Shown here piece by piece: positions 909-10,687 of a stretch of DNA of 10,687 nucleotides. The notes below the pieces were generated by a model that did not search any database, was not told the origin of the DNA, and worked only from the letters and a program-made list of their open reading frames with translations. Positions within the stretch are counted from its first letter, which is position 1. The number at the start of each line of letters is the position of its first letter. Source of the stretch: a virus. Its lineage: Duplodnaviria; Heunggongvirae; Uroviricota; Caudoviricetes. The stretch lies in IMG/VR virus record IMGVR_UViG_2740892444_000005, positions 1-10,687 of that record. The stretch is one strand, 5' to 3'. The translations under genes and the position numbers were made by a program.

Positions 909-1955
909 TTATGCTAGAGTTGAATATTCTCCATTTCCTCGGTCGGTGAGTGTTAATTCGCGGCCATTTTCTGTAAATGTAATGGCATCCAGCAGGCTTT
1001 TTCCTGTTACAGCTATACCATATCCAAGGTTATCAATCTTTGAACTGTCCTCAGATGATATTGGTATTTGTACAAGCATACCAACAACAAAGCCGTATTT
1101 GTTAATTATAGGGCCACCGCTATTCCCCCCCTTAACCCTAGCATTGAATAATAAAAAGTCTTGTGAATCTAAGTAAGAGTGACCAGAACCAACAATTCGC
1201 CCCTTTGACAGTCGGACAAACGAATTTATATGCGAAACGTCATATAACTTTAATGCATCAAATCCTGGAATGGGTGGAAATCCTATTGATAAAATTTCAT
1301 CCAGTACCGAGGCTTTGGTTGAGACCTTAAGTGGTTGAATATTATCTTCCTTCGGAATGGTTGTGAAAACTAAAGCGATATCAATACGTTCATCGTTAGA
1401 TACAAAGATTTTATGTATTGGTAAAGCCTCACCACCAGCTCTAAGTATCCTGATACTCTTCATGTCTTCAATAACATGTCTGGCTGTAAATATCGTGTGG
1501 TTATTCCCAACAATAAAACTAGTACCAAGATCATGTGAACCATCACTTTTTTCAACAACAACAGGTAAAACGGAAGGACTAAGGCGGTCTATGATTGACT
1601 CAAATCCATCAGCTATAAAATCATACTTTCCATATTTCGCATCTGATTCATTGAAATTCGGTGCGAAATAGCAACGGTCAAAAAGAGTATGTCCTGAAGA
1701 CAATTCCATTAAAATACCTTCAGTTGCTAGCTTTTCACAATTGCGTATTAACTTCATCATATCGAGAGTATTTTCCCACTCAGGTTTGAGACGGGTCAGG
1801 CTCTCAATTGTTTTTCTCTCTTTTACGTTATCGTTTTCCGGTTTGTCATAAAAATATTTCACTATTTCTGTTGGTGTTACATATGTTTTTTTTATAGTCA
1901 TTTTTGTACCCGCGATGACGTTATTCCATATATTTTTCTTTGTAGAAAATATCAC
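909..1955 (-). CDS. trypsin-like (S1/PA-clan) serine protease with uncharacterised ~135-aa N-terminal domain; no obvious signal peptide
   Basis: 348-aa ORF. The catalytic triad is in canonical order and context: His160 in TARHVIED, Asp192 in DIALVF, Ser279 in GGNSGGP (codons at nt ~1119-1121 on the minus strand). The N-terminus is not hydrophobic, so the protein is probably cytoplasmic. The start at 1955 is GTG; an alternative ATG lies at 1901 (M19). Neither has a strong Shine-Dalgarno sequence. The gene is AT-rich. Confidence 0.8.
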   Translation of the reverse strand: MIFSTKKNIWNNVIAGTKMTIKKTYVTPTEIVKYFYDKPENDNVKERKTIESLTRLKPEWENTLDMMKLIRNCEKLATEGILMELSSGHTLFDRCYFAPNFNESDAKYGKYDFIADGFESIIDRLSPSVLPVVVEKSDGSHDLGTSFIVGNNHTIFTARHVIEDMKSIRILRAGGEALPIHKIFVSNDERIDIALVFTTIPKEDNIQPLKVSTKASVLDEILSIGFPPIPGFDALKLYDVSHINSFVRLSKGRIVGSGHSYLDSQDFLLFNARVKGGNSGGPIINKYGFVVGMLVQIPISSEDSSKIDNLGYGIAVTGKSLLDAITFTENGRELTLTDRGNGEYSTLA

Positions 1956-2361
1956 TATTGCTGGTAAATGTTAAGTTCAGTGCTCGCACTAAAGCTGGAT
2001 GATCAACGTCGCCCTCGTATGGAAATCAGGTAAGATTCATGTCTACTTGGGGTCTAGGGTAGACAGCATAAAAACGTACGATAGCGTTCGATTGGCTCTC
2101 ACCCCCGCCTATAAACCATGAGGTTGATAGGGTAGTATCGTTAGGCAATAGTATACATGTAAGTATCCAACCTAATTGGTCTTGAGATTTCTAACTAACG
2201 TGTCGTTATGTCCGCTTTTGGCACATAGCAGTCCTAGAGACAGTGTCGTAAAGTCATGTAGGATCGGTGGGAGGAGGTAAAAATCCTCTCATACAAAAAT
2301 ACGTAAAATCGATAACGGCTGGAGATCATTCAATACTCGCCCTATCGAAAGCTCACCAGCC

Positions 2362-2397
2362 AGCCGCAACACGTTCTTACATATGACGTGTCTGCGG
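2362..2397. repeat. imperfect-palindrome hairpin element, copy A (paired with copy B at 4832-4867)
   Basis: AGCCGCAACACGTTCTTACATATGACGTGTCTGCGG matches 4832-4867 at 30 of 36 positions. It folds as CCGCA-ACACGTT / AACGTG-TGCGG with a 1-nt bulge. Weaker similarity extends into both flanks (ACCA..GCC upstream, TC.AA.C downstream). Confidence 0.6.
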
Positions 2398-2410
2398 TTT
2401 CAACTCCACC

Positions 2411-2447
2411 AGCCCACCAATCATGATTGGGCTTTTTCGTTTTTCTT
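2411..2447 (+). terminator. putative intrinsic terminator (GC-rich hairpin followed by T-tracts)
   Basis: AGCCCACCAATCATGATTGGGCT (stem AGCCCA/TGGGCT) is followed directly by TTTTTCGTTTTTCTT. The T-run follows the hairpin only on the plus strand. No plus-strand ORF lies upstream of it. Confidence 0.55.
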
Positions 2448-2574
2448 CACCTGCAAGCAAACCGTTGTATCATGGCGGAATGAAGATGAGCTAGGAATAA
2501 TCTTACGAATCAGCTCAATATTCATATAAAAACATTTCGAACTTTGGTGTACAAAACTACATAGGGATAACTTT

Positions 2575-3777
2575 ATGTCTCTTCGTTTCAGACAAACCTT
2601 TACTCTATTTCCTGGCGTTCGACTCAACATTGGCAAGCGTGGAATAAGTGCAAGCATTGGCGTGCCTGGCGCAACTGTCAATGTTGGTAAAAAAGGGGTT
2701 AGAGCAACTGTCGGATTACCGGGCACAGGCTTATCTTATACTACACCTACCTTGCCCTATGATGATGGATACTCAGTTACCAATCCATTAAATCCAGCCC
2801 CTACAGAACCTCATTTGGGGTCTGGGTCATCTCCAGAAAATACACCATCGAACGCTAAAATATATATGCCTGTAGCTGGCATGAATGAAATATCCAGCGC
2901 TTCGGTAGAAGTCCTTACAAGTACCTCCCTTTTACCTTTACGAGATTTGATTGCTAAAGCACGAGAACAAAGAGCAGAAATAAAAGCAGATCTTCAAGAG
3001 GCTCTTGCCGAAGAATCAAAACAAAAAAGCGAGCTGGCTCGACGCAAATCAAGTCTATTCCGTTGGTTTTACAAACGACGCATCGCAGAACTTGAGACAC
3101 TACTCCCCCTAACCCAAGCTGAGATATCTCGCCTAGTTTCATGGGAAGACAGCACAAAAATAGCCATAACATTCGAGAGCAGTGATGCTTCACAGCGCGC
3201 ATATGCAGCGATGGTCCATGCATTTGATATGTTAAAATCGAGTGTCAAAAAATGGGATATTACTGCAGATAAAGCTACAGACCAGTTTGCTGAAAGAACA
3301 TTAGCAACCCGGTCTGTTAATCGTCACCCAGTTACCTTTGATTTTAGTTCAACGGATCTCATTCAATTTACAGGGCGTGCGATGAGGTTTGAAAATGTGA
3401 ATGGAGACGATATTTTGCTTTATCCTGGAGTTGCAGTCATACCACGAGCTGATGGAGCATTCGCTCTGATTGATTTACGCGAATTACAAATTAATTCAGA
3501 ATATCTAAGATTCCATGAGGAAGAAGGTGTTCCCAGTGACTCACGCATAGATGGTTATACATGGGCGAAAACGAATAAGAATGGCTCACCAGACCGTCGT
3601 TTTAAAGATAACTACCAAATCCCTATTTGCATTTATGGAAATATTACTTTCCATTCTCAAACAGGGGTAACTGAAGAATATATGGTATCAAATGCAGATG
3701 CCGCGCACGCCTTTGCTGAGGCAGTAAAACGTTATCAGATTTCACTCACAGAAACAGAAGCGTTGGTACAGGCCTGA
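2575..3777 (+). CDS. DUF4236-type protein (N-terminal Gly/Lys/Arg-rich DUF4236-like module, P/S/T-rich linker, predicted coiled coil, uncharacterised C-terminal domain)
   Basis: 400-aa ORF with ATG at 2575 and RBS AGGGA at 2563-2567. The N-terminus RFRQTFTLFPGVRLNIGKRGISASIGVPGATVNVGKKGVRATVGLPGTGLSY matches my recollection of the DUF4236 signature. A low-complexity linker (PTLPYDDGYSVTNPLNPAPTEPHLGSGSSPENTPSN) and a charged helical segment (AKAREQRAEIKADLQEALAEESKQKSELARRK) follow. I cannot assign the C-terminal ~200 aa. The gene is AT-rich. Confidence 0.85.
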   Translation: MSLRFRQTFTLFPGVRLNIGKRGISASIGVPGATVNVGKKGVRATVGLPGTGLSYTTPTLPYDDGYSVTNPLNPAPTEPHLGSGSSPENTPSNAKIYMPVAGMNEISSASVEVLTSTSLLPLRDLIAKAREQRAEIKADLQEALAEESKQKSELARRKSSLFRWFYKRRIAELETLLPLTQAEISRLVSWEDSTKIAITFESSDASQRAYAAMVHAFDMLKSSVKKWDITADKATDQFAERTLATRSVNRHPVTFDFSSTDLIQFTGRAMRFENVNGDDILLYPGVAVIPRADGAFALIDLRELQINSEYLRFHEEEGVPSDSRIDGYTWAKTNKNGSPDRRFKDNYQIPICIYGNITFHSQTGVTEEYMVSNADAAHAFAEAVKRYQISLTETEALVQA

Positions 3778-3836
3778 TTTATCGCCGATATGGGGACGAA
3801 TCGTAGGTTAAAACCCCCTAGAACAAAAAAAACCTT

Positions 3837-3864
3837 AAGAACCAGACTATTATGGCTGGTTCTT
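3837..3864. other. perfect 9-bp-stem hairpin between the two cassette genes (possible terminator/attenuator)
   Basis: AAGAACCAG-(10 nt loop)-CTGGTTCTT. It lies 60 nt after the stop of the 2575-3777 gene and is preceded by an A8 tract (3823-3830). That gives a T8 run after the hairpin on the minus strand, with a 4-nt spacer. There is no clean T-run after it on the plus strand, so orientation and function are ambiguous. Confidence 0.3.
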
Positions 3865-3881
3865 GTACGGAGGATTTGTTA

Positions 3882-3908
3882 TTGTACAACTCTTCTATCT
3901 GGTATATT
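3882..3908 (+). promoter_or_regulatory. candidate sigma70 promoter with extended -10 for the DUF2971 gene
   Basis: -35-like TTGTAC (3882-3887), a 15-bp spacer (short), TG at 3900-3901 and -10 TATATT (3903-3908), i.e. TGgTATATT. It lies ~80 nt upstream of the ATG at 3991. Motif match only. Confidence 0.3.
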
Positions 3909-3990
3909 TACGGATAGAACTGTTCAGGCTACTCAATCCTTTTTAAGTACAAATGAACAGATAGAAATAGTTATATTGCAAGGAGCTATC

Positions 3991-4779
3991 ATGCACACTG
4001 AGTATATATGGCGATACCTTGACATAGAGAAATTCTCTATGTTACTCGAACAAAATGCTTTATTTTTTTGCTCAGCAAAAAATTTTGAAGATCCGTTCGA
4101 AGGTGAATTTGCTTGGGGACATACTGGCTATAAAAAATTCATTGAGACACAGGAAAAACTATGCGCTACTTATGGTGCCGGCATGGACTTAGATCCTTTC
4201 ATGGCATTCAATTTAAAGACACTTAAGGAAATAAGCGAGAGGACATATATAAGTTGCTGGCATTGTAACGAACATGAATCTGAAGCTATGTGGAAGCTGT
4301 ATTGTAAAAACCCCGCTAAAGGCGTTGTCATAAAATCAAAGAAAAAAAACCTCCAAAGCCAACTTGAAAATAATAATCTAAACAAACTACAATTAAAACA
4401 CGTAAAATACGTCAAAAATTTCTGGATAAAACAATACAATCCAGAATCAGATGTATTCTTTAACAAGAGACCATCTTTCGAATACGAAAAAGAGTTTAGA
4501 GCTATTTTTCAAGAGAATACCTTTAACACTCCACCTGTAAAGGGAAAACTAGTCCCTGTATCTCTTAATAATCTGTTGGAAGAAATAAGGATTTCACCTT
4601 TCGCAGATAAGGATTTCAAAAATGAAGTTTTACAAATTTCAAAAAAACATGGACTAGATCTGAAAGTCAAAAACTCTGAAATTGAAATGCATCCCATCAT
4701 GCATGTTGAGGAAGAAATAATTGCAGAAGGCCCCAATTGGTATCAGTCAAAAATCAGATTGGCAATACGTGATGCTTAA
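3991..4779 (+). CDS. DUF2971-type protein
   Basis: 262-aa product starting at the ATG at 3991, which is preceded by AGGAG (3981-3985). The ORF-track start at 3790 is rejected because it has no RBS and the extension spans the hairpin. The family hallmarks as I recall them are present: YIWRYLDIEKFSMLLEQNALFFCSAKNFEDPFEGEF, CWHCNEHESEAMWKLYCKNPAKGVVIK and FEYEKEFRAIF. The gene is AT-rich. Confidence 0.85.
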   Translation: MHTEYIWRYLDIEKFSMLLEQNALFFCSAKNFEDPFEGEFAWGHTGYKKFIETQEKLCATYGAGMDLDPFMAFNLKTLKEISERTYISCWHCNEHESEAMWKLYCKNPAKGVVIKSKKKNLQSQLENNNLNKLQLKHVKYVKNFWIKQYNPESDVFFNKRPSFEYEKEFRAIFQENTFNTPPVKGKLVPVSLNNLLEEIRISPFADKDFKNEVLQISKKHGLDLKVKNSEIEMHPIMHVEEEIIAEGPNWYQSKIRLAIRDA

Positions 4780-4882: not shown

Positions 4883-5467
4883 TTACTCCATAACAGGGAC
4901 AGCAGGCCACTCAATATCAGGTGCAGTTGATGTATCAACACGGTTCAGCAACACCCGATACTTCTTCCAGGCTTCCAGCAACGAGTTTTCTTCCTCCGTT
5001 GCGATCTCCAGATCTACAGCATCCTGAAGTGGCGCAATATGCTCACTGGCTACCTGCATCAGGCTGTTTTTTGTTTCTTCCGCCTCCCGGATCCGGAACA
5101 GTTTTTCTGCTTCCGTATCCTTCACCCAGGCTGTGCCGTTCCACTTCTGAAACTCCCCTTCCGGCGATAACCAGGTAACATTTTCCGGTAACGGACCGAG
5201 TTCAGAAATAAATAACGCGTCGCCGGAAGCCACGTCATAAACCGTTTTACCCCGATGGTCTTCAACGAGATGCCACGATGCCTCATCACTGTTGAAAACA
5301 GCCACAAAGCCAGCAGGAATATCTGGTGGTGCAATATCGGTACTGTTTGCTGGCAGACCTGTATGAGGCGGAATATATGCGTCACCTTCACCAATAAATT
5401 CATTAGTCCCGACCAGCAGATTATAAATTTTTATGGTCCGTGGTTGTTCACTCATTCTGAATGCCAT
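4883..5467 (-). CDS. tfa: tail fiber assembly protein (lambda Tfa-like)
   Basis: 194-aa product, [18 protein letters not shown]...EWPAVPVME, is near-identical in length and sequence to lambda Tfa as I recall it. Its start overlaps the upstream stf stop (TAATG on the minus strand at 5465-5469). Confidence 0.9.
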
Positions 5468-6678
5468 TATGCAAGCCTCACAATATAGTTAAATGCGATG
5501 TTTTTGACGGTGTTTTCCGCATTACCAGCAGCGTTAACGGTGATGGTGTGTCCATGTGAACCAATCGCAACGGAGTGCGTATGAGCACCAATACCGACAG
5601 TATGCGCGTGTGCACCTGCAGATGCTGCTGTGCCGGACAGTGAGTGGCTATGATTACCATCTGTACTGGTATTAGCTAACCACCCCGTAGACATACCTAC
5701 TGAGCCTTGTACACCCCAGGTATTTTGACCTGAGCTTGTATAACCATATTGATAAGTATCTTTAAAAACACTGGGGTTAAATCGACGGCCATCTCTATGG
5801 CTGTGATTACCAGCTGCATTCGTGCTGCCACTTAAACTATGAGTATGCGCACCAGTGTTATTCGTGGATTTAGTGCCGTAATCAAACGATGATGTGGTTT
5901 TCGTACCCAAATCCGTACTGGATACGCTGGCGCTGTGGGTGTGCGATTTAATGCCGTCCTGTTCCTGAGACAATACGGCACGACCACTGGCGGGCTTGCC
6001 CTTAATCGTCCAGCCACGCATATCAGGGATCACGCCTGACGGATAAGCGGCTGCAAGTTTCGGGTAAGCAGATTTGTCAAAAGTCTGCCCCTGCATCAGG
6101 GCATAACCAGACGGAACGGTATCTGATGGCCACGGGATTGGTGCGCCGACTGGGTAGCTTTCTGGTGGAAGATTTTTCGAGGTATAAACTTCTGCCCAGT
6201 CTTCCTCAAAACCATAACCGTCTCTTGAAGAACGGTAGAACAGACCACCATTTCTGTAATGCGCCTTCATCTGCAGGGTCCGGCAACTTCCGACTCCGGT
6301 ATAGAAGTTAACCAGAATATAGCTGTCGCCAGAGCGGGTGACATTGTAAGCGCCTGATTCGGCATTCCAGGGAACGCCACCATCCGCATCGGCATATGTA
6401 TCCGTTGCCCTTCTGGCAAAAGCAGCCACATGCGCGGCGGTTATCCAGATTAACCAAATCCTTGTTGTTGGGGAATAACTAGGTCCACCTCGCCTGATGT
6501 GGCTAAAAGCAGGCACATAACAGCTAAGTATTTTCAACCAGAGAGAATCCTTAGCGTTGTGGTGAATGCGGCTCAGCGCACGCGGGTTAAGGTTGAGGCT
6601 GACAGTCGACCTTCTGTGGATACCCACCCGCCTGGTGTGCAACCTTCGCCAGGCACCGGGAGGCACCCGGCACCACAA
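5467..6678 (-). pseudogene. stf: side tail fiber protein remnant (C-terminal portion only, 5'-truncated)
   Basis: The C-terminal ~320 aa match the lambda Stf / StfR-type C-terminus as I recall it ([31 protein letters not shown]...[25 protein letters not shown]...[27 protein letters not shown]), including the periodic His-rich motifs (GAHTHS, GNHSHS, GAHAHT, GSHGHT). The N-terminal ~85 aa of the ORF (nt ~6420-6678) read as non-protein-like sequence, and no plausible start or upstream stf body is present. Full-length Stf is far longer. Confidence 0.8.
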
Positions 6679-6701
6679 CTTTATGCTGTGTGTAGTCCTG
6701 G

Positions 6702-6747
6702 CGGTACCAGTTTGTACCCTTGCTTCCGGCTGGTACCGTCCTTTTTT
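6702..6747 (+). terminator. putative intrinsic terminator (9-bp perfect stem, T6 tract)
   Basis: CGGTACCAG (6702-6710) and CTGGTACCG (6730-6738) form a perfect inverted repeat, each arm containing GGTACC, with a 19-nt loop. It is followed by TCC then TTTTTT (6742-6747). The T-run is on the plus strand only. The loop is unusually long. Confidence 0.4.
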
Positions 6748-6748
6748 G

Positions 6749-6835
6749 CAAAACAGAGAAGAGCATCACCGGACGACGGGCTCATAACCCAATCCATCCG
6801 GGCGGCTGCCACCGCAGGTGTTCTTCTCTGTTTTG
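6749..6835. repeat. long inverted repeat / extended hairpin (14-bp perfect arms, ~59-nt spacer) upstream of the yfdP-like gene
   Basis: CAAAACAGAGAAGA (6749-6762) pairs with TCTTCTCTGTTTTG (6822-6835). The pairing extends imperfectly inward (ATCACC.. with ..GGTG). It sits immediately after the 6702-6747 hairpin and ~50 nt upstream of the yfdP-like start. Confidence 0.4.
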
Positions 6836-6884
6836 TGGAGAAACCAACCGACCTTGCAGGGTCGATATGATGAGGAGCAGCAAA

Positions 6885-7247
6885 ATGGCTAGCGAACGCA
6901 GTACTGATGTGCAGGCATTTATCGGGGAGCTGGACGGCGGCGTATTTGAAACCAAAATCGGCGCAGTTCTCAGTGAAGTCGCTTCCGGTGTGATGAACAC
7001 GAAAACCAAAGGGAAGGTCTCACTCAATCTGGAAATCGAACCGTTTGATGAGAACCGTGTGAAAATCAAACACAAACTCTCATATGTTCGCCCAACTAAC
7101 CGCGGGAAAATTTCTGAAGAAGACACCACCGAAACGCCGATGTATGTCAATCGCGGTGGTCGCCTGACTATTCTGCAGGAAGACCAGGGACAATTACTGA
7201 CTCTTGCCGGTGAGCCTGACGGAAAACTCCGCGCAGCAGGTCATTAA
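6885..7247 (+). CDS. yfdP: YfdP-like prophage protein (unknown function)
   Basis: 120-aa product starting MASERSTDVQAFIGELDGG, from the ATG at 6885 preceded by GAGGAG (6872-6877). Alternative in-frame ATGs at 6867 and 6870 would add 5-6 aa. Length and sequence match my recollection of K-12 CPS-53 YfdP; the symbol is from memory. Confidence 0.65.
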   Translation: MASERSTDVQAFIGELDGGVFETKIGAVLSEVASGVMNTKTKGKVSLNLEIEPFDENRVKIKHKLSYVRPTNRGKISEEDTTETPMYVNRGGRLTILQEDQGQLLTLAGEPDGKLRAAGH

Positions 7248-7312
7248 TATCGTTCTTAATTAACTGATTATTTATCTCATCACTGAATATCTTAATATAG
7301 TGAGGACTTATT

Positions 7313-8137
7313 ATGTCTCAGAACTTAGACGCAACCGCAATTAATCAAATCCATGCCCTTATTTCTGCTCAGGGTGTTAATGAAATTATCAGTAAGATTG
7401 GTGCCGATGCTGTGGCATTGCCTGAGAATTTCCGCATTCATGATCTGGAAAAATTTAATTTAAATCGCTTCCGTTTCCGTGGTGCGCTTTCCACTGCCAG
7501 CATCGATGACTTTACCCGTTATTCTAAAGATCTTGCAGATGAAGGCACCCGCTGCTTTATCGATGCTGATAATATGCGTGCCGTCAGTGTGCTTAACCTG
7601 GGTACTATTGATGAACCAGGTCACGCAGATAACACCGCCACTCTCAAACTGAAAAAGACAGCACCGTTCTCTGCCCTGTTGTCTGTTAACGGCGAGCGTA
7701 ACGCCCAGAAATCACTGGCAGAATGGATTGAAGACTGGGCAGACTACCTTGTGGGCTTTGATGCTAATGGTGACGCCATTCAGGCAACAAAAGCGGCTGC
7801 GGCAATCCGTAAAATCACGATTGAAGCAAACCAGACCGCTGATTTTGAAGATAATGACTTCAGCGGCAAACGCTCCCTGATGGAATCTGTCGAAGCGAAG
7901 ACCAAAGACATTATGCCAGTGGCATTTGAATTTAAATGCGTTCCGTTTGAAGGTCTGAAAGAACGTCCGTTTAAATTACGCCTCAGCATTATCACTGGCG
8001 ATCGTCCTGTACTGGTTCTGCGCATTATTCAGCTGGAAGCGGTGCAGGAAGATATGGCTAACGAATTTCGTGATCTGCTTGTTGAGAAATTCAAAGACAG
8101 CAAAGTAGAAACCTTTATTGGTACTTTCACCGCCTGA
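7313..8137 (+). CDS. yfdQ: YfdQ-like prophage protein (DUF2303 family)
   Basis: 274-aa product starting [26 protein letters not shown], with RBS GAGGA at 7303-7307. It matches my recollection of K-12 YfdQ (274 aa). Confidence 0.8.
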
Positions 8138-8149
8138 TTTCATTACTGC

Positions 8150-8171
8150 AAATGCCCCTGTGGGGGCATTT
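8150..8171 (+). other. hairpin after yfdQ-like gene (weak candidate terminator/attenuator)
   Basis: AAATGCCCC-TGTG-GGGGCATTT: a 9-bp perfect stem with a 4-nt loop, 13 nt after the yfdQ stop. The T residues lie inside the 3' arm rather than forming a free U-tract, so termination is uncertain. Confidence 0.25.
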
Positions 8172-8264
8172 ATGGAAACGTAATTAACTCAATAATCACC
8201 GAATGGTGAGGGCTTCCTTTTACCCAAACTCAGCGCGGTGCAGCGCATATACGTGGAGAACAAA

Positions 8265-8801
8265 ATGTCATTTATTAAAACTTTTTCCGGGAAGCATTTT
8301 TATTATGACAAGATAAATAAAGACGACATCGTGATTAACGATATCGCGGTTTCCCTTTCAAATATCTGCCGCTTTGCCGGTCATCTTTCTCACTTCTACA
8401 GTGTCGCCCAACATGCGGTGCTTTGCAGCCAGCTGGTGCCGCAGGAATTTGCTTTTGAAGCGTTAATGCATGATGCAACAGAAGCGTATTGCCAGGACAT
8501 CCCCGCACCACTGAAACGCCTTCTTCCTGACTATAAACGGATGGAAGAAAAAATAGATGCAGTAATCCGTGAGAAATACGGGTTACCTCCTGTTATGAGC
8601 ACGCCAGTGAAATATGCCGATCTCATTATGCTGGCAACCGAACGCCGTGATCTCGGGCTTGATGATGGCTCTTTATGGCCTGTACTGGAAGGTATCCCGG
8701 CAACAGAGATGTTCAAAGTTATTCCACTGGCACCGGGCCATGCCTACGGGATGTTTATGGAACGCTTCAACGAGTTATCGGAATTACGCAAATGTGCATA
8801 A
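8265..8801 (+). CDS. yfdR: HD-domain phosphohydrolase (YfdR-like)
   Basis: 178-aa product from the ATG at 8265 (RBS GGAGAA at 8255-8260; the ORF-track start at 8238 is rejected). It has HD-superfamily motifs (HLSHFYSVAQHAVL; ALMHDATEAYCQD). It matches my recollection of K-12 YfdR. Confidence 0.85.
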   Translation: MSFIKTFSGKHFYYDKINKDDIVINDIAVSLSNICRFAGHLSHFYSVAQHAVLCSQLVPQEFAFEALMHDATEAYCQDIPAPLKRLLPDYKRMEEKIDAVIREKYGLPPVMSTPVKYADLIMLATERRDLGLDDGSLWPVLEGIPATEMFKVIPLAPGHAYGMFMERFNELSELRKCA

Positions 8802-9670
8802 CTCATGTAGTTAGTTTTTCTGGCGGGAGAACATCCGCATATCTTGTTCACCTGATGGAAGAACAAAGAAAGGCTGGCAATAACGTCTGCTACATCTTTA
8901 TGGATACCGGTTGCGAACATCCGCTGACATACCGCTTTATCCGGGAGGTTGTGAAGTTCTGGGACATACCACTAACTGTGTTACAGGTCGATATAAATCC
9001 TGAGCTTGGGCAGCCAAATGGTTATACAGAATGGGAGCCAAAGGATATTCAGACACGAATGCCGGTGCTTAAACCGTTTATGGACATGGTTAAAAAGTAC
9101 GGCACGCCATACATCGGCGGCGCGTTCTGTACTGACAGGCTAAAACTCATCCCTTTCACGAAATACTGCGATAACCATTTCGGACGAGGTAATTACATCA
9201 CATGGCTGGGTATTCGTGCAGACGAACCCCGTAGGCTGAAACCGAAATCGGGCATCCGGTATCTTGCCGAGCTGTCAGATTTTGATAAGTCGGATGTTAT
9301 CCGGTGGTGGCGAAAACAACCTTTTGATTTGCAAATCCCGGAGCATCTCGGGAACTGTGTTTTCTGCATCAAAAAGTCAACGCAAAAGCTGGGGCTTGCA
9401 TGTAAAGACGAACCAGGTCTGATGCGAGTTTTTAATGAGCTGGTTACAGGCAAACACGTCAGGGATGGTCATCGCAGAACAGGTAAAGACATTATGTACC
9501 GTGGTCACCTGACGCTTGACGGAATTGCCAGAATGTCTGCCAACAGCGACTACAGAAATTTGTATCAGGCAATGGTACAGGCCAGGCGATTCGATACCGG
9601 CTCGTGTTCAGAGTCATGTGAAATCTGGGGTGATCAATTGGAATTGGAATTCGAAGAGGTAGGGGTATGA
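8792..9670 (+). CDS. PAPS-reductase-like / PP-loop ATP-pyrophosphatase family protein (phage type)
   Basis: 292-aa product from the ATG at 8792, which overlaps the yfdR stop (ATGTGCATAA). The N-terminal PP-loop motif SFSGGRTS is present. Relatives are common in lambdoid prophage early regions. The ORF-track start at 8675 is rejected because it would overlap yfdR by ~40 codons. Confidence 0.8.
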   Translation: MCITHVVSFSGGRTSAYLVHLMEEQRKAGNNVCYIFMDTGCEHPLTYRFIREVVKFWDIPLTVLQVDINPELGQPNGYTEWEPKDIQTRMPVLKPFMDMVKKYGTPYIGGAFCTDRLKLIPFTKYCDNHFGRGNYITWLGIRADEPRRLKPKSGIRYLAELSDFDKSDVIRWWRKQPFDLQIPEHLGNCVFCIKKSTQKLGLACKDEPGLMRVFNELVTGKHVRDGHRRTGKDIMYRGHLTLDGIARMSANSDYRNLYQAMVQARRFDTGSCSESCEIWGDQLELEFEEVGV

Positions 9671-10011
9671 CAACCGAAATCAGCTACCATGCACTGCTTG
9701 AGCGCGCACGGAATAAAGTGCAGAGCATTGAGTTCGCCTTAACACAGAGTGCATTCGCTGAGATTCGCGCTGAGCTTGAAAATGATTTAGAACTGGCACG
9801 GATTGCACTGGCATCTCTGGAAGTTGAGCCAGATGAACGCGCAGCCTATGAATTATTTATGGAAAAGCGTTTCGGTAAAACAGTCGATCGTCGGAGAGCA
9901 AAAAACGGCGATAACGAATACATGGCATGGGATATGACTCTCGGTTGGATCGTCTGGCAGCAACGAGCTGGTATCCATTTTTCAACAATGTCACAGCAAG
10001 AGGTGAAATAA
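9667..10011 (+). CDS. hypothetical prophage early-region protein
   Basis: 114-aa ORF. Its ATG overlaps the upstream stop (ATGA at 9667-9670) and its stop overlaps the xis start (TAATG at 10009-10013). Acidic, helical-looking sequence. No family recognised. Confidence 0.65.
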   Translation: MTTEISYHALLERARNKVQSIEFALTQSAFAEIRAELENDLELARIALASLEVEPDERAAYELFMEKRFGKTVDRRRAKNGDNEYMAWDMTLGWIVWQQRAGIHFSTMSQQEVK

Positions 10012-10361
10012 TGGAGCCATACAGCCTCACACTCGATGAGGCCTGTCATTTTCTCAAGATATCCAGACCGACTGCCATTAACTGGATACGCACAGGGCGT
10101 CTTCAGGCAACACGCAAAGATCCCACTAAGAATAAATCTCCTTACCTCACAACACGACAAGCCTGCATTGCGGCTCTTCAGTCTCCGCTGCATACTGTCC
10201 AGGTGAGCGCGGGTGATGGCATAACAGAGGAAAGAAAATGTCACTCTTCCGCAGAGGTGAAATATGGTACGCCAGTTTCACATTGCCGAACGGTAAAAGA
10301 TTTAAACAGTCTCTTGGAACAAAGGACAAAAGGCAGGCGACAGAACTCCATGACAAGCTAA
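10011..10361 (+). CDS. xis: excisionase (P22 Xis-like)
   Basis: 116-aa product [40 protein letters not shown], with RBS GAGGTGA at 10002-10008. It matches my recollection of P22-type Xis in length and sequence. It sits immediately upstream of, and overlapping, the integrase start. Confidence 0.75.
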
Positions 10362-10687
10362 AGGCTGAAGCATGGCGGGTCAGCAAACTTGGTGAAATAC
10401 CTGATATAACGTTCGAGGAAGCGTGTGTCAGGTGGCTTGAAGAGAAAGCACATAAAAAATCACTGGACGATGACAAAAGCCGGATCGGATTCTGGCTTCA
10501 ACATTTCGCAGGAATGCAACTAAGAGACATTACTGAATCAAAAATTTATTCAGCAATGCAGAAAATGACGAACCGGCGTCATGAGGAAAACTGGAAACTC
10601 AGGGCAGAAGCATGCAGAAAAAAAGGGAAACCTGTTCCAGAATACACGCCAAAACCAGCGTCCGTTGCAACGAAGGCTACGCACTGA
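10238..10687 (+). CDS. int: tyrosine integrase, N-terminal (arm-binding) region only; frame ends at TGA 10685-10687
   Basis: [46 protein letters not shown] is the N-terminus of P22 / CPS-53 IntS-type integrases as I recall them. RBS AGAGGA at 10226-10231. The frame terminates after 149 aa, whereas family members are ~385 aa. No catalytic domain is visible in this window. Confidence 0.8.

Follow-up and report, generated by a model that had tools for sequence, protein, structure and literature searches.

Introduction

The closest described relatives of the integrase considered here are the thrW-specific tyrosine integrases of the Shigella phages SfIV, SfII, SfI, and SfV and of the P22-like Salmonella phages. 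The intact allele of the gene, found in near-identical Escherichia coli genomes, encodes a 387-aa protein that is alike these integrases over its full length, showing 100, 99.5, 99.2, and 98.5% identity with Int of SfIV, SfII, SfI, and SfV, respectively, and approximately 90% identity over 387 aa with Int of the P22-like Salmonella phages ST64T, L, and BTP1. IntS of K-12, encoded by CPS-53 (KpLE1), is likewise a prophage tyrosine recombinase of approximately 385 aa, and CPS-53 shares gene names (yfdP, yfdQ, and yfdR-like) with the early-left genes described below; however, its attachment site is argW and not thrW.

Premature termination of an int gene by an insertion sequence (IS) is an ordinary, well-known kind of gene disruption. 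The IS-disrupted int genes of cryptic prophages and islands in E. coli and Shigella have the same outcome as the locus described here, a split int in a decaying element, and only the type and position of the IS differ. The classical target preference of IS10, the insertion sequence of Tn10, is NGCTNAGCN, and the element has one gene for a DDE transposase of approximately 402 aa. IS10 is 1,329 bp long and is flanked by a 9-bp duplication (PMC10359306), and ISVsa5 is placed in the IS10 group within the IS4 family (PMC4036041).

The DNA analyzed here, a viral record of 10,687 nucleotides referred to in its entirety as the window, carries a remnant of a lambdoid prophage with an integrase gene of the SfIV type. 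In contrast to the SfIV-type phages, its integrase copy ends at residue 149 without the catalytic domain, its cargo is different (there are no gtr genes in the window), and a large deletion has occurred.

Results and Discussion

The integrase gene fragment and its intact allele

The int open reading frame (ORF) on the plus strand (10238–10687) had an ATG start, 149 codons, and a TGA at 10685–10687, as the first-pass annotation of this DNA had reported. The TGA was the final triplet of the window, which shows nothing 3′ of the stop. The 149-aa product was identical to residues 1–149 of the intact 387-aa allele. Past residue 149 the intact allele reads ...VATKATH|LSFIKALL..., in agreement with the annotation, in which the family continues from KATH into LSF. 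In Pfam, PF00589 (Phage_integrase, catalytic) matched residues 184–355 of the intact allele with 164 bits and did not match the 149-aa product, in which the catalytic domain, with its active-site residues and the tyrosine nucleophile among them, is missing; the proposal of a disrupted integrase devoid of this domain was thus confirmed. Because the 149 residues are identical to those of the intact allele and the catalytic domain is absent, the premature stop is real and the frame is not a chance ORF, and the window encodes a fragment of a family-member gene instead of a functional member. For an N-terminal arm-type DNA-binding domain, as is typical of lambda-like integrases, the only Pfam match was to DUF6538 (residues 3–44), which was sub-threshold with 22.3 bits against a cut-off of 27, and among solved structures none matched the N-terminal third of the integrase by sequence.

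The enzyme had also been described as P22/IntS-type. The comparison with the P22-like integrases upheld the first half of this assignment but not the second, as BLASTP against K-12 IntS gave E = 0.024 with 21% identity over 72 aa, which is no meaningful sequence similarity. As judged from their sequences, the integrase and K-12 IntS are unrelated beyond the level of the fold.

Fifty-five complete E. coli genomes covered at least 80% of the window from 9000 to 10687. The alignment ended at 10683 in 29 of the 30 matches listed for these 55 genomes, and the genes at those 29 matches were annotated as full-length tyrosine recombinases. Strain VE-T2 (NZ_AP027960.1, locus L002) showed 100% identity with the window as far as 10683, and its sequence goes on as GCA TCTTTCATTT. 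In relatives with identical flanks, int was followed by tRNA-Thr and proA, so that the placement at thrW is seen in these relatives, beyond the edge of the window.

The start codon of the integrase is annotated differently in public records. PGAP places the start of the intact integrase at an internal TTG at window position 10283, giving a protein of 372 aa (WP_001132557.1), and the ATG at 10238, which lies 45 nt upstream of this TTG, gives 387 aa. In tblastn searches, all 387 residues including the N-terminus aligned with the integrases of SfIV and P22-like phages. With the ATG start, int and the xis-like gene (10011–10361) overlap by 124 nt.

The junction between int and IS10

The features at the end of the window are as follows.

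10238–10683, plus strand: 5′ fragment of the SfIV/P22-type tyrosine integrase gene, 446 nt consisting of codons 1–148 and two bases of codon 149, identical to the intact allele of VE-T2
10675–10683, unstranded: IS10 target site GGCTACGCA, the same 9 bp that lie on both flanks of the IS in strain SWYH.B349aT, matching 5/6 of NGCTNAGCN
10684–10687, plus strand: first four bases, CTGA, of the outside-end terminal repeat of IS10; the C completes His149 (CAC versus CAT), the TGA is the stop, and intact alleles have TCTT

The last four bases of the window, CTGA, differed from the TCTT of the intact allele at all four positions; the intact allele reads GCA TCTTTC at this site, and the window reads GCA CTGA. 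The source contig, JUJZ01000037.1 (GCA_000804345.1, locus L008), had the same gene order and matched the last 10,450 bases of the window with 100% identity. This contig stops 13 bases beyond the TGA, with the sequence GCA|CTGATGAATCCCCTAAT at its end. All 17 bases of CTGATGAATCCCCTAAT were identical to the outside end of IS10/ISVsa5 (17/17). A terminal inverted repeat beginning with CTGA is a hallmark of IS10, and the visible IS10 sequence of the window's genome, of which the window shows 4 bases and the source contig 17, matched annotated ISVsa5 copies with no difference in kind. The run of the source contig into the IS10 end indicated that the stop codon was supplied by the IS.

Two exact look-ups of the 149-aa product gave 22 and 15 contigs, and ten of the 22 were inspected. 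These ten contigs, all with the identical 149-aa product, ended 13–115 bases past the TGA, within the IS10 end. Short-read assemblies break at multicopy repeats. The source contig ends 17 bases into the IS because IS10 is such a repeat in a short-read assembly, and the window had been trimmed to the stop codon.

The first-pass annotation had attributed the stop to a 1-nt indel or a nonsense mutation and had suggested a search for the catalytic domain in another frame downstream. The one observation that speaks for a point mutation, or for a homopolymer sequencing error, in an otherwise continuous int is that the frame stops exactly where the relatives go on with LSF. However, all four terminal bases differ, and a one-base deletion would give CTTT and not CTGA. 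Moreover, the 13 further bases of the source contig enter the IS10 end instead of int in another frame, the site is not a homopolymer, and the same junction recurs in many independent assemblies. This cause of the stop therefore has virtually no probability and was abandoned.

We consider it very likely that the int gene of a thrW-integrated SfIV/P22-type lambdoid prophage remnant was interrupted between 10683 and 10684 by IS10 (ISVsa5-type, IS4 family). IS10 would have inserted by cut-and-paste transposition with duplication of the 9-bp target GGCTACGCA, and its terminal CTGA would complete the His149 codon and provide the in-frame TGA. The 149-aa product would retain the N-terminal arm-binding region and a portion of the core-binding region, without the catalytic domain (184–355). 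With the outside end next to the 5′ fragment of int, the transposase gene and int would share one reading direction. The genome of the window would accordingly be predicted to hold an IS10 of the full 1,329 bp and, beyond it, the second copy of the 9-bp target, then the 3′ part of int, and then thrW.

IS10 copies in the int genes of other genomes

Strain SWYH.B349aT (NZ_CP091773.1, locus L001) was the sole complete genome listed that matched the window to its last base. Its integrase is annotated as two fragments flanking a gene for an "IS4-like element ISVsa5 family transposase". The inserted element measures 1,329 bp, with imperfect terminal inverted repeats and a 9-bp direct duplication, GGCTACGCA, and it lies at the same nucleotide as the break in the window, in the orientation opposite to that of the window. 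The left junction reads ...GAA GGCTACGCA | CTGAGAGATCCCCTCATAATTTCC..., and the right junction reads ...GGGGATTCATCAG | GGCTACGCA | TCTTTCATTT.... Beyond the IS, the 3′ part of int is kept and is followed by tRNA-Thr (thrW) and proA. In silico removal of the IS and one copy of the duplication restored the intact junction and left 12 differences from VE-T2 in the 2,000 bases that were aligned.

A junction search of complete E. coli genomes found an insertion at the window's site only in SWYH.B349aT and found no junction in the window's orientation; the evidence for the window's orientation consists of four draft contigs together with exact records of the chimeric protein described below. Strain MINF_8D (NZ_LR890606.1, locus L013, 3549–4877) has a separate IS10/ISVsa5 in the same int gene, at codon 298, with the 9-bp duplication AACACAGCC on both sides; owing to this separate position it was rejected as a match to the junction in the window. 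The sequence of the MINF_8D copy is identical to that of the SWYH.B349aT copy. Both copies are 1,329 bp long and encode a 402-aa ISVsa5-family transposase, and both are simple insertions with perfect 9-bp duplications.

The location of the window's junction at the extreme end of a short-read contig is what would be expected if int and IS10 reads had been joined in a chimeric contig end. However, this breakpoint is shared by the ten inspected contigs, which stem from different projects and assemblers, and by a closed genome that also shows the target duplication, which makes an assembly artefact exceedingly improbable.

Insertion of Tn10 as a unit was ruled out in SWYH.B349aT, in which a solo 1,329-bp IS lies between the duplication copies. 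At the junction in the window, the outside end fits a solo IS10 and Tn10 alike, and a whole Tn10 is unlikely.

SWYH.B349aT has a second ISVsa5 copy approximately 10 kb from the copy in int, adjoining a truncated rtcB, and prfH is missing compared with VE-T2 (L001, 23679–24887 and 25061–25615). This second copy suggests a further IS10-associated deletion near thrW.

Orientation and repeated use of the insertion site

In both annotated copies, the start codon of the transposase gene is 108 nt from the CTGATGAATCC end and its stop is 13 nt from the CTGAGAGATCC end. The CTGATGAATCC end also contains an IHF-like motif at approximately +30 to +42, the feature that defines the IS10 outside end (PMC3159471). 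The nearby transposase start and the IHF-like motif identified CTGATGAATCC as the outside end and CTGAGAGATCC as the inside end. In the window and at loci L004, L006, L008, and L012, the 5′ fragment of int borders on the outside end, and in SWYH.B349aT and at loci L003, L005, L007, L009, L010, and L011 it borders on the inside end; thus, six of the ten inspected draft contigs end at the inside end of IS10 and four at the outside end.

Because an IS cannot flip in place, the presence of both orientations indicated at least two independent insertions at this nucleotide. Upstream of the insertion there were two haplotypes (0 versus 11–12 differences in 424 bp), and both IS10 orientations occurred on each. 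In addition, the IS10 copies at L003 and L010 differed from the SWYH.B349aT copy at 6 of 96–119 bases and represent IS10 sequence variants. From these sequence comparisons, the occurrence of both orientations on both haplotypes, together with the variant at L003 and L010, points to a likely four or more insertion events.

The target GGCTACGCA matched NGCTNAGCN at 5/6 specified positions. Only five sites in the 1,164-nt int gene, including GGCTACGCA, had one mismatch or less to NGCTNAGCN, and none was perfect. A literature search on IS10, integrase, and thrW found no report of such a hotspot in the literature searched.

The recurrence of the same product could also be read as a sign that the 149-aa protein is conserved and selected, for example as an arm-site-binding regulator or an exclusion factor; the identical 149 aa are present on 15–22 contigs from varied samples and prophage backgrounds, and the site was struck independently more than once. 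Against this, the stop came from the IS10 terminus in every case inspected, no IS-free gene with an end at 149 aa was found among these cases, and the recurrence is explained by the target preference of IS10. Furthermore, the intact 387-aa protein was present on at least 1,000 contigs, compared with 15–22 for the truncated product. We therefore regard a selected 149-aa product as very improbable.

The far side of IS10

For an IS10 in the window's orientation, the predicted far junction reads ...AAATTATGAGGGGATCTCTCAG|GGCTACGCA|TCTTTC. At this junction the transposase stop and an in-frame ATG overlap (ATGA), and this ATG starts a 247-aa ORF beginning with MRGSLRATHLSF... (MRGSLR + ATHLSF...), which corresponds to the arm-less C-terminal two-thirds of Int. 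The exact 247-aa chimeric protein is on record as WP_016238889.1, annotated as "site-specific integrase", and as EOV44330.1 (E. coli KTE221), and it was present on four contigs. The 253-aa chimera predicted for the opposite orientation likewise exists in NCBI records. The existence of both predicted chimeric proteins indicated that there are simple insertions in either orientation that retain the 3′ part of int. The in-frame ATG of the 247-aa ORF in the inside end of IS10 is probably fortuitous.

The insertion in the window's genome is probably simple as well. A simple insertion predicts that ...GGGGATCTCTCAG|GGCTACGCA|TCTTTCATTT would be present elsewhere in GCA_000804345.1, that GGCTACGCATCTTTC would stand between the inside end of IS10 and the 3′ part of int, with thrW beyond, and that GGGGATCTCTCAGGGCTACGCATCTTTCATTT would share a contig with the remainder of int, tRNA-Thr, and proA. 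Alternatively, the IS10 at the break could mark a rearrangement, such as an adjacent deletion or inversion mediated by IS10 or a recombination between IS10 copies, in which case the 3′ part of int and thrW would not lie on its far side. The contig of the window ends 17 bases into the IS, before its far side; IS10 is numerous in many E. coli genomes, with up to approximately 45 matching places per genome; and the second ISVsa5 copy of SWYH.B349aT, 10 kb away, lies beside the truncated rtcB. All of these would be compatible with a rearrangement, but the insertions in SWYH.B349aT and MINF_8D are simple with perfect 9-bp duplications, and NCBI genomes encode exactly the chimera that a simple insertion oriented as in the window would produce. 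A rearrangement is consequently regarded as unlikely.

In a further-reaching reading, nucleotide 446 of SfIV/P22-type int would act in nature as a strong hotspot for IS10; its repeated use, in either orientation and on two or more prophage haplotypes, would fix thrW prophages with their cargo in the chromosome, possibly under selection, and the 247-aa arm-less Int might be made at a low level by translational coupling. We consider this reading as a whole to be distinctly improbable. Of mild note is only that IS10 has repeatedly used one nucleotide of int, in both orientations.

The prophage remnant around int

The remainder of the window contained the following features.

909–4779, unstranded: cargo consisting of an S1 (trypsin-like) peptidase and DUF4236 and DUF2971 proteins (Pfam; PADLOC PDC-S31 for the DUF2971 protein)
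4883–5467, minus strand: tfa, tail fibre assembly (Pfam Caudo_TAP, E = 7.8e-45)
5467–6441, minus strand: 3′ part of stf (side tail fibre), 5′-truncated (Pfam Collar, Phage_fiber, and gp37_C)
6442–10010, plus strand: early-left non-essential genes for YfdP-like, YfdQ/DUF2303, YfdR-like 5′-deoxynucleotidase, PAPS-reductase-family, and one hypothetical protein (Pfam; 99.98% collinearity with SWYH.B349aT and its annotation)
10011–10361, plus strand: intact xis-like helix-turn-helix gene, an excisionase candidate (Pfam HTH_17, E = 1.6e-08; phage records annotate an excisionase beside int)

A deletion junction was located at approximately 6441/6442, where the tail-fibre match ends (at approximately 6443) and the early-left match to SWYH.B349aT begins (at 6439). 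This junction joins the 3′ part of stf directly to the early-left genes. In SWYH.B349aT, approximately 30 kb of tail, head, terminase, lysis, Q, replication, and repressor genes lie between these two blocks, and that prophage is itself damaged. The remnant in the window has no structural, lysis, replication, or immunity genes, and its description in the first-pass annotation as an immobilised, cryptic element was supported. The architecture of the window was found in 0 of 5,426 complete E. coli genomes, in which the best coverage was 64%, in two pieces.

In VE-T2-type genomes, the region corresponding to 5097–8901 of the window is missing, and a fragment of tfa is joined to a 5′-truncated PAPS-reductase gene (L002, 11903–11911). 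This deletion is larger than that in the window, its flanks are 100% identical, and int is intact. The deletions of the window and of VE-T2 are nested in one lineage. The presence of the larger deletion together with an intact int indicated that the structural decay is independent of the int lesion and that the two are separate events. At the left boundary, a direct repeat of the thrW end is 64 bp long in SWYH.B349aT and 33 bp in VE-T2, in which it lies approximately 1.6 kb to the left of the equivalent of the window start.

No active recombinase can be produced from a truncated int, so that the remnant is unable to excise by itself. The att repeat kept in relatives and the intact xis-like gene make excision with the Int of a related phage in trans conceivable, and, from this gene content, excision might occur if a related phage supplied Int in trans. 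The annotation had also held that loss of the integrase fixes the cargo in the host; this remains correct as to the loss of self-excision, but the link is weaker than proposed, because VE-T2-type genomes decayed with int intact and relatives keep the att repeat.

The cargo block, located between the tail fibre genes and the far att site, was also present at the left end of the thrW prophage in SWYH.B349aT and VE-T2. The DUF2971 protein (3790–4779) matched the PADLOC candidate system PDC-S31 with E = 2.6e-20, the S1 peptidase (909–1901, minus strand) matched the protease domains of the RT-Protease_XI, LmuA, and HamA models, and the DUF4236 protein (2575–3777) had no PADLOC match. The block at 909–4779 may be a candidate for anti-phage defence. 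Among the early-left genes, the PAPS-reductase-family protein (8792–9670) matched the PADLOC SspD model with E = 1.4e-14, and only its first approximately 70 residues matched Pfam PAPS_reduct. In VE-T2, a second island (L002, 226–5029) lies directly past the left att repeat; this island has an integrase of its own, interrupted by IS3, and a gene for an RNA-directed DNA polymerase, possibly of a retron or DRT-type defence. The VE-T2 prophage and this second island look like a tandem array of elements at thrW. This neighbouring island (IS3) and MINF_8D (IS10 at codon 298) are examples of an int split by an IS.

Implications

The gene at the end of the window should be annotated as "int, interrupted by IS10", and the end of the window is no natural gene end. 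More generally, when an ORF ends on the final triplet of a contig or window, a repeat boundary should be suspected. The independent IS10 strikes, in both orientations, on one nucleotide of a widespread integrase constitute a natural example of the target preference of IS10, and insertion of IS10 into int is one route by which thrW prophages are locked in.
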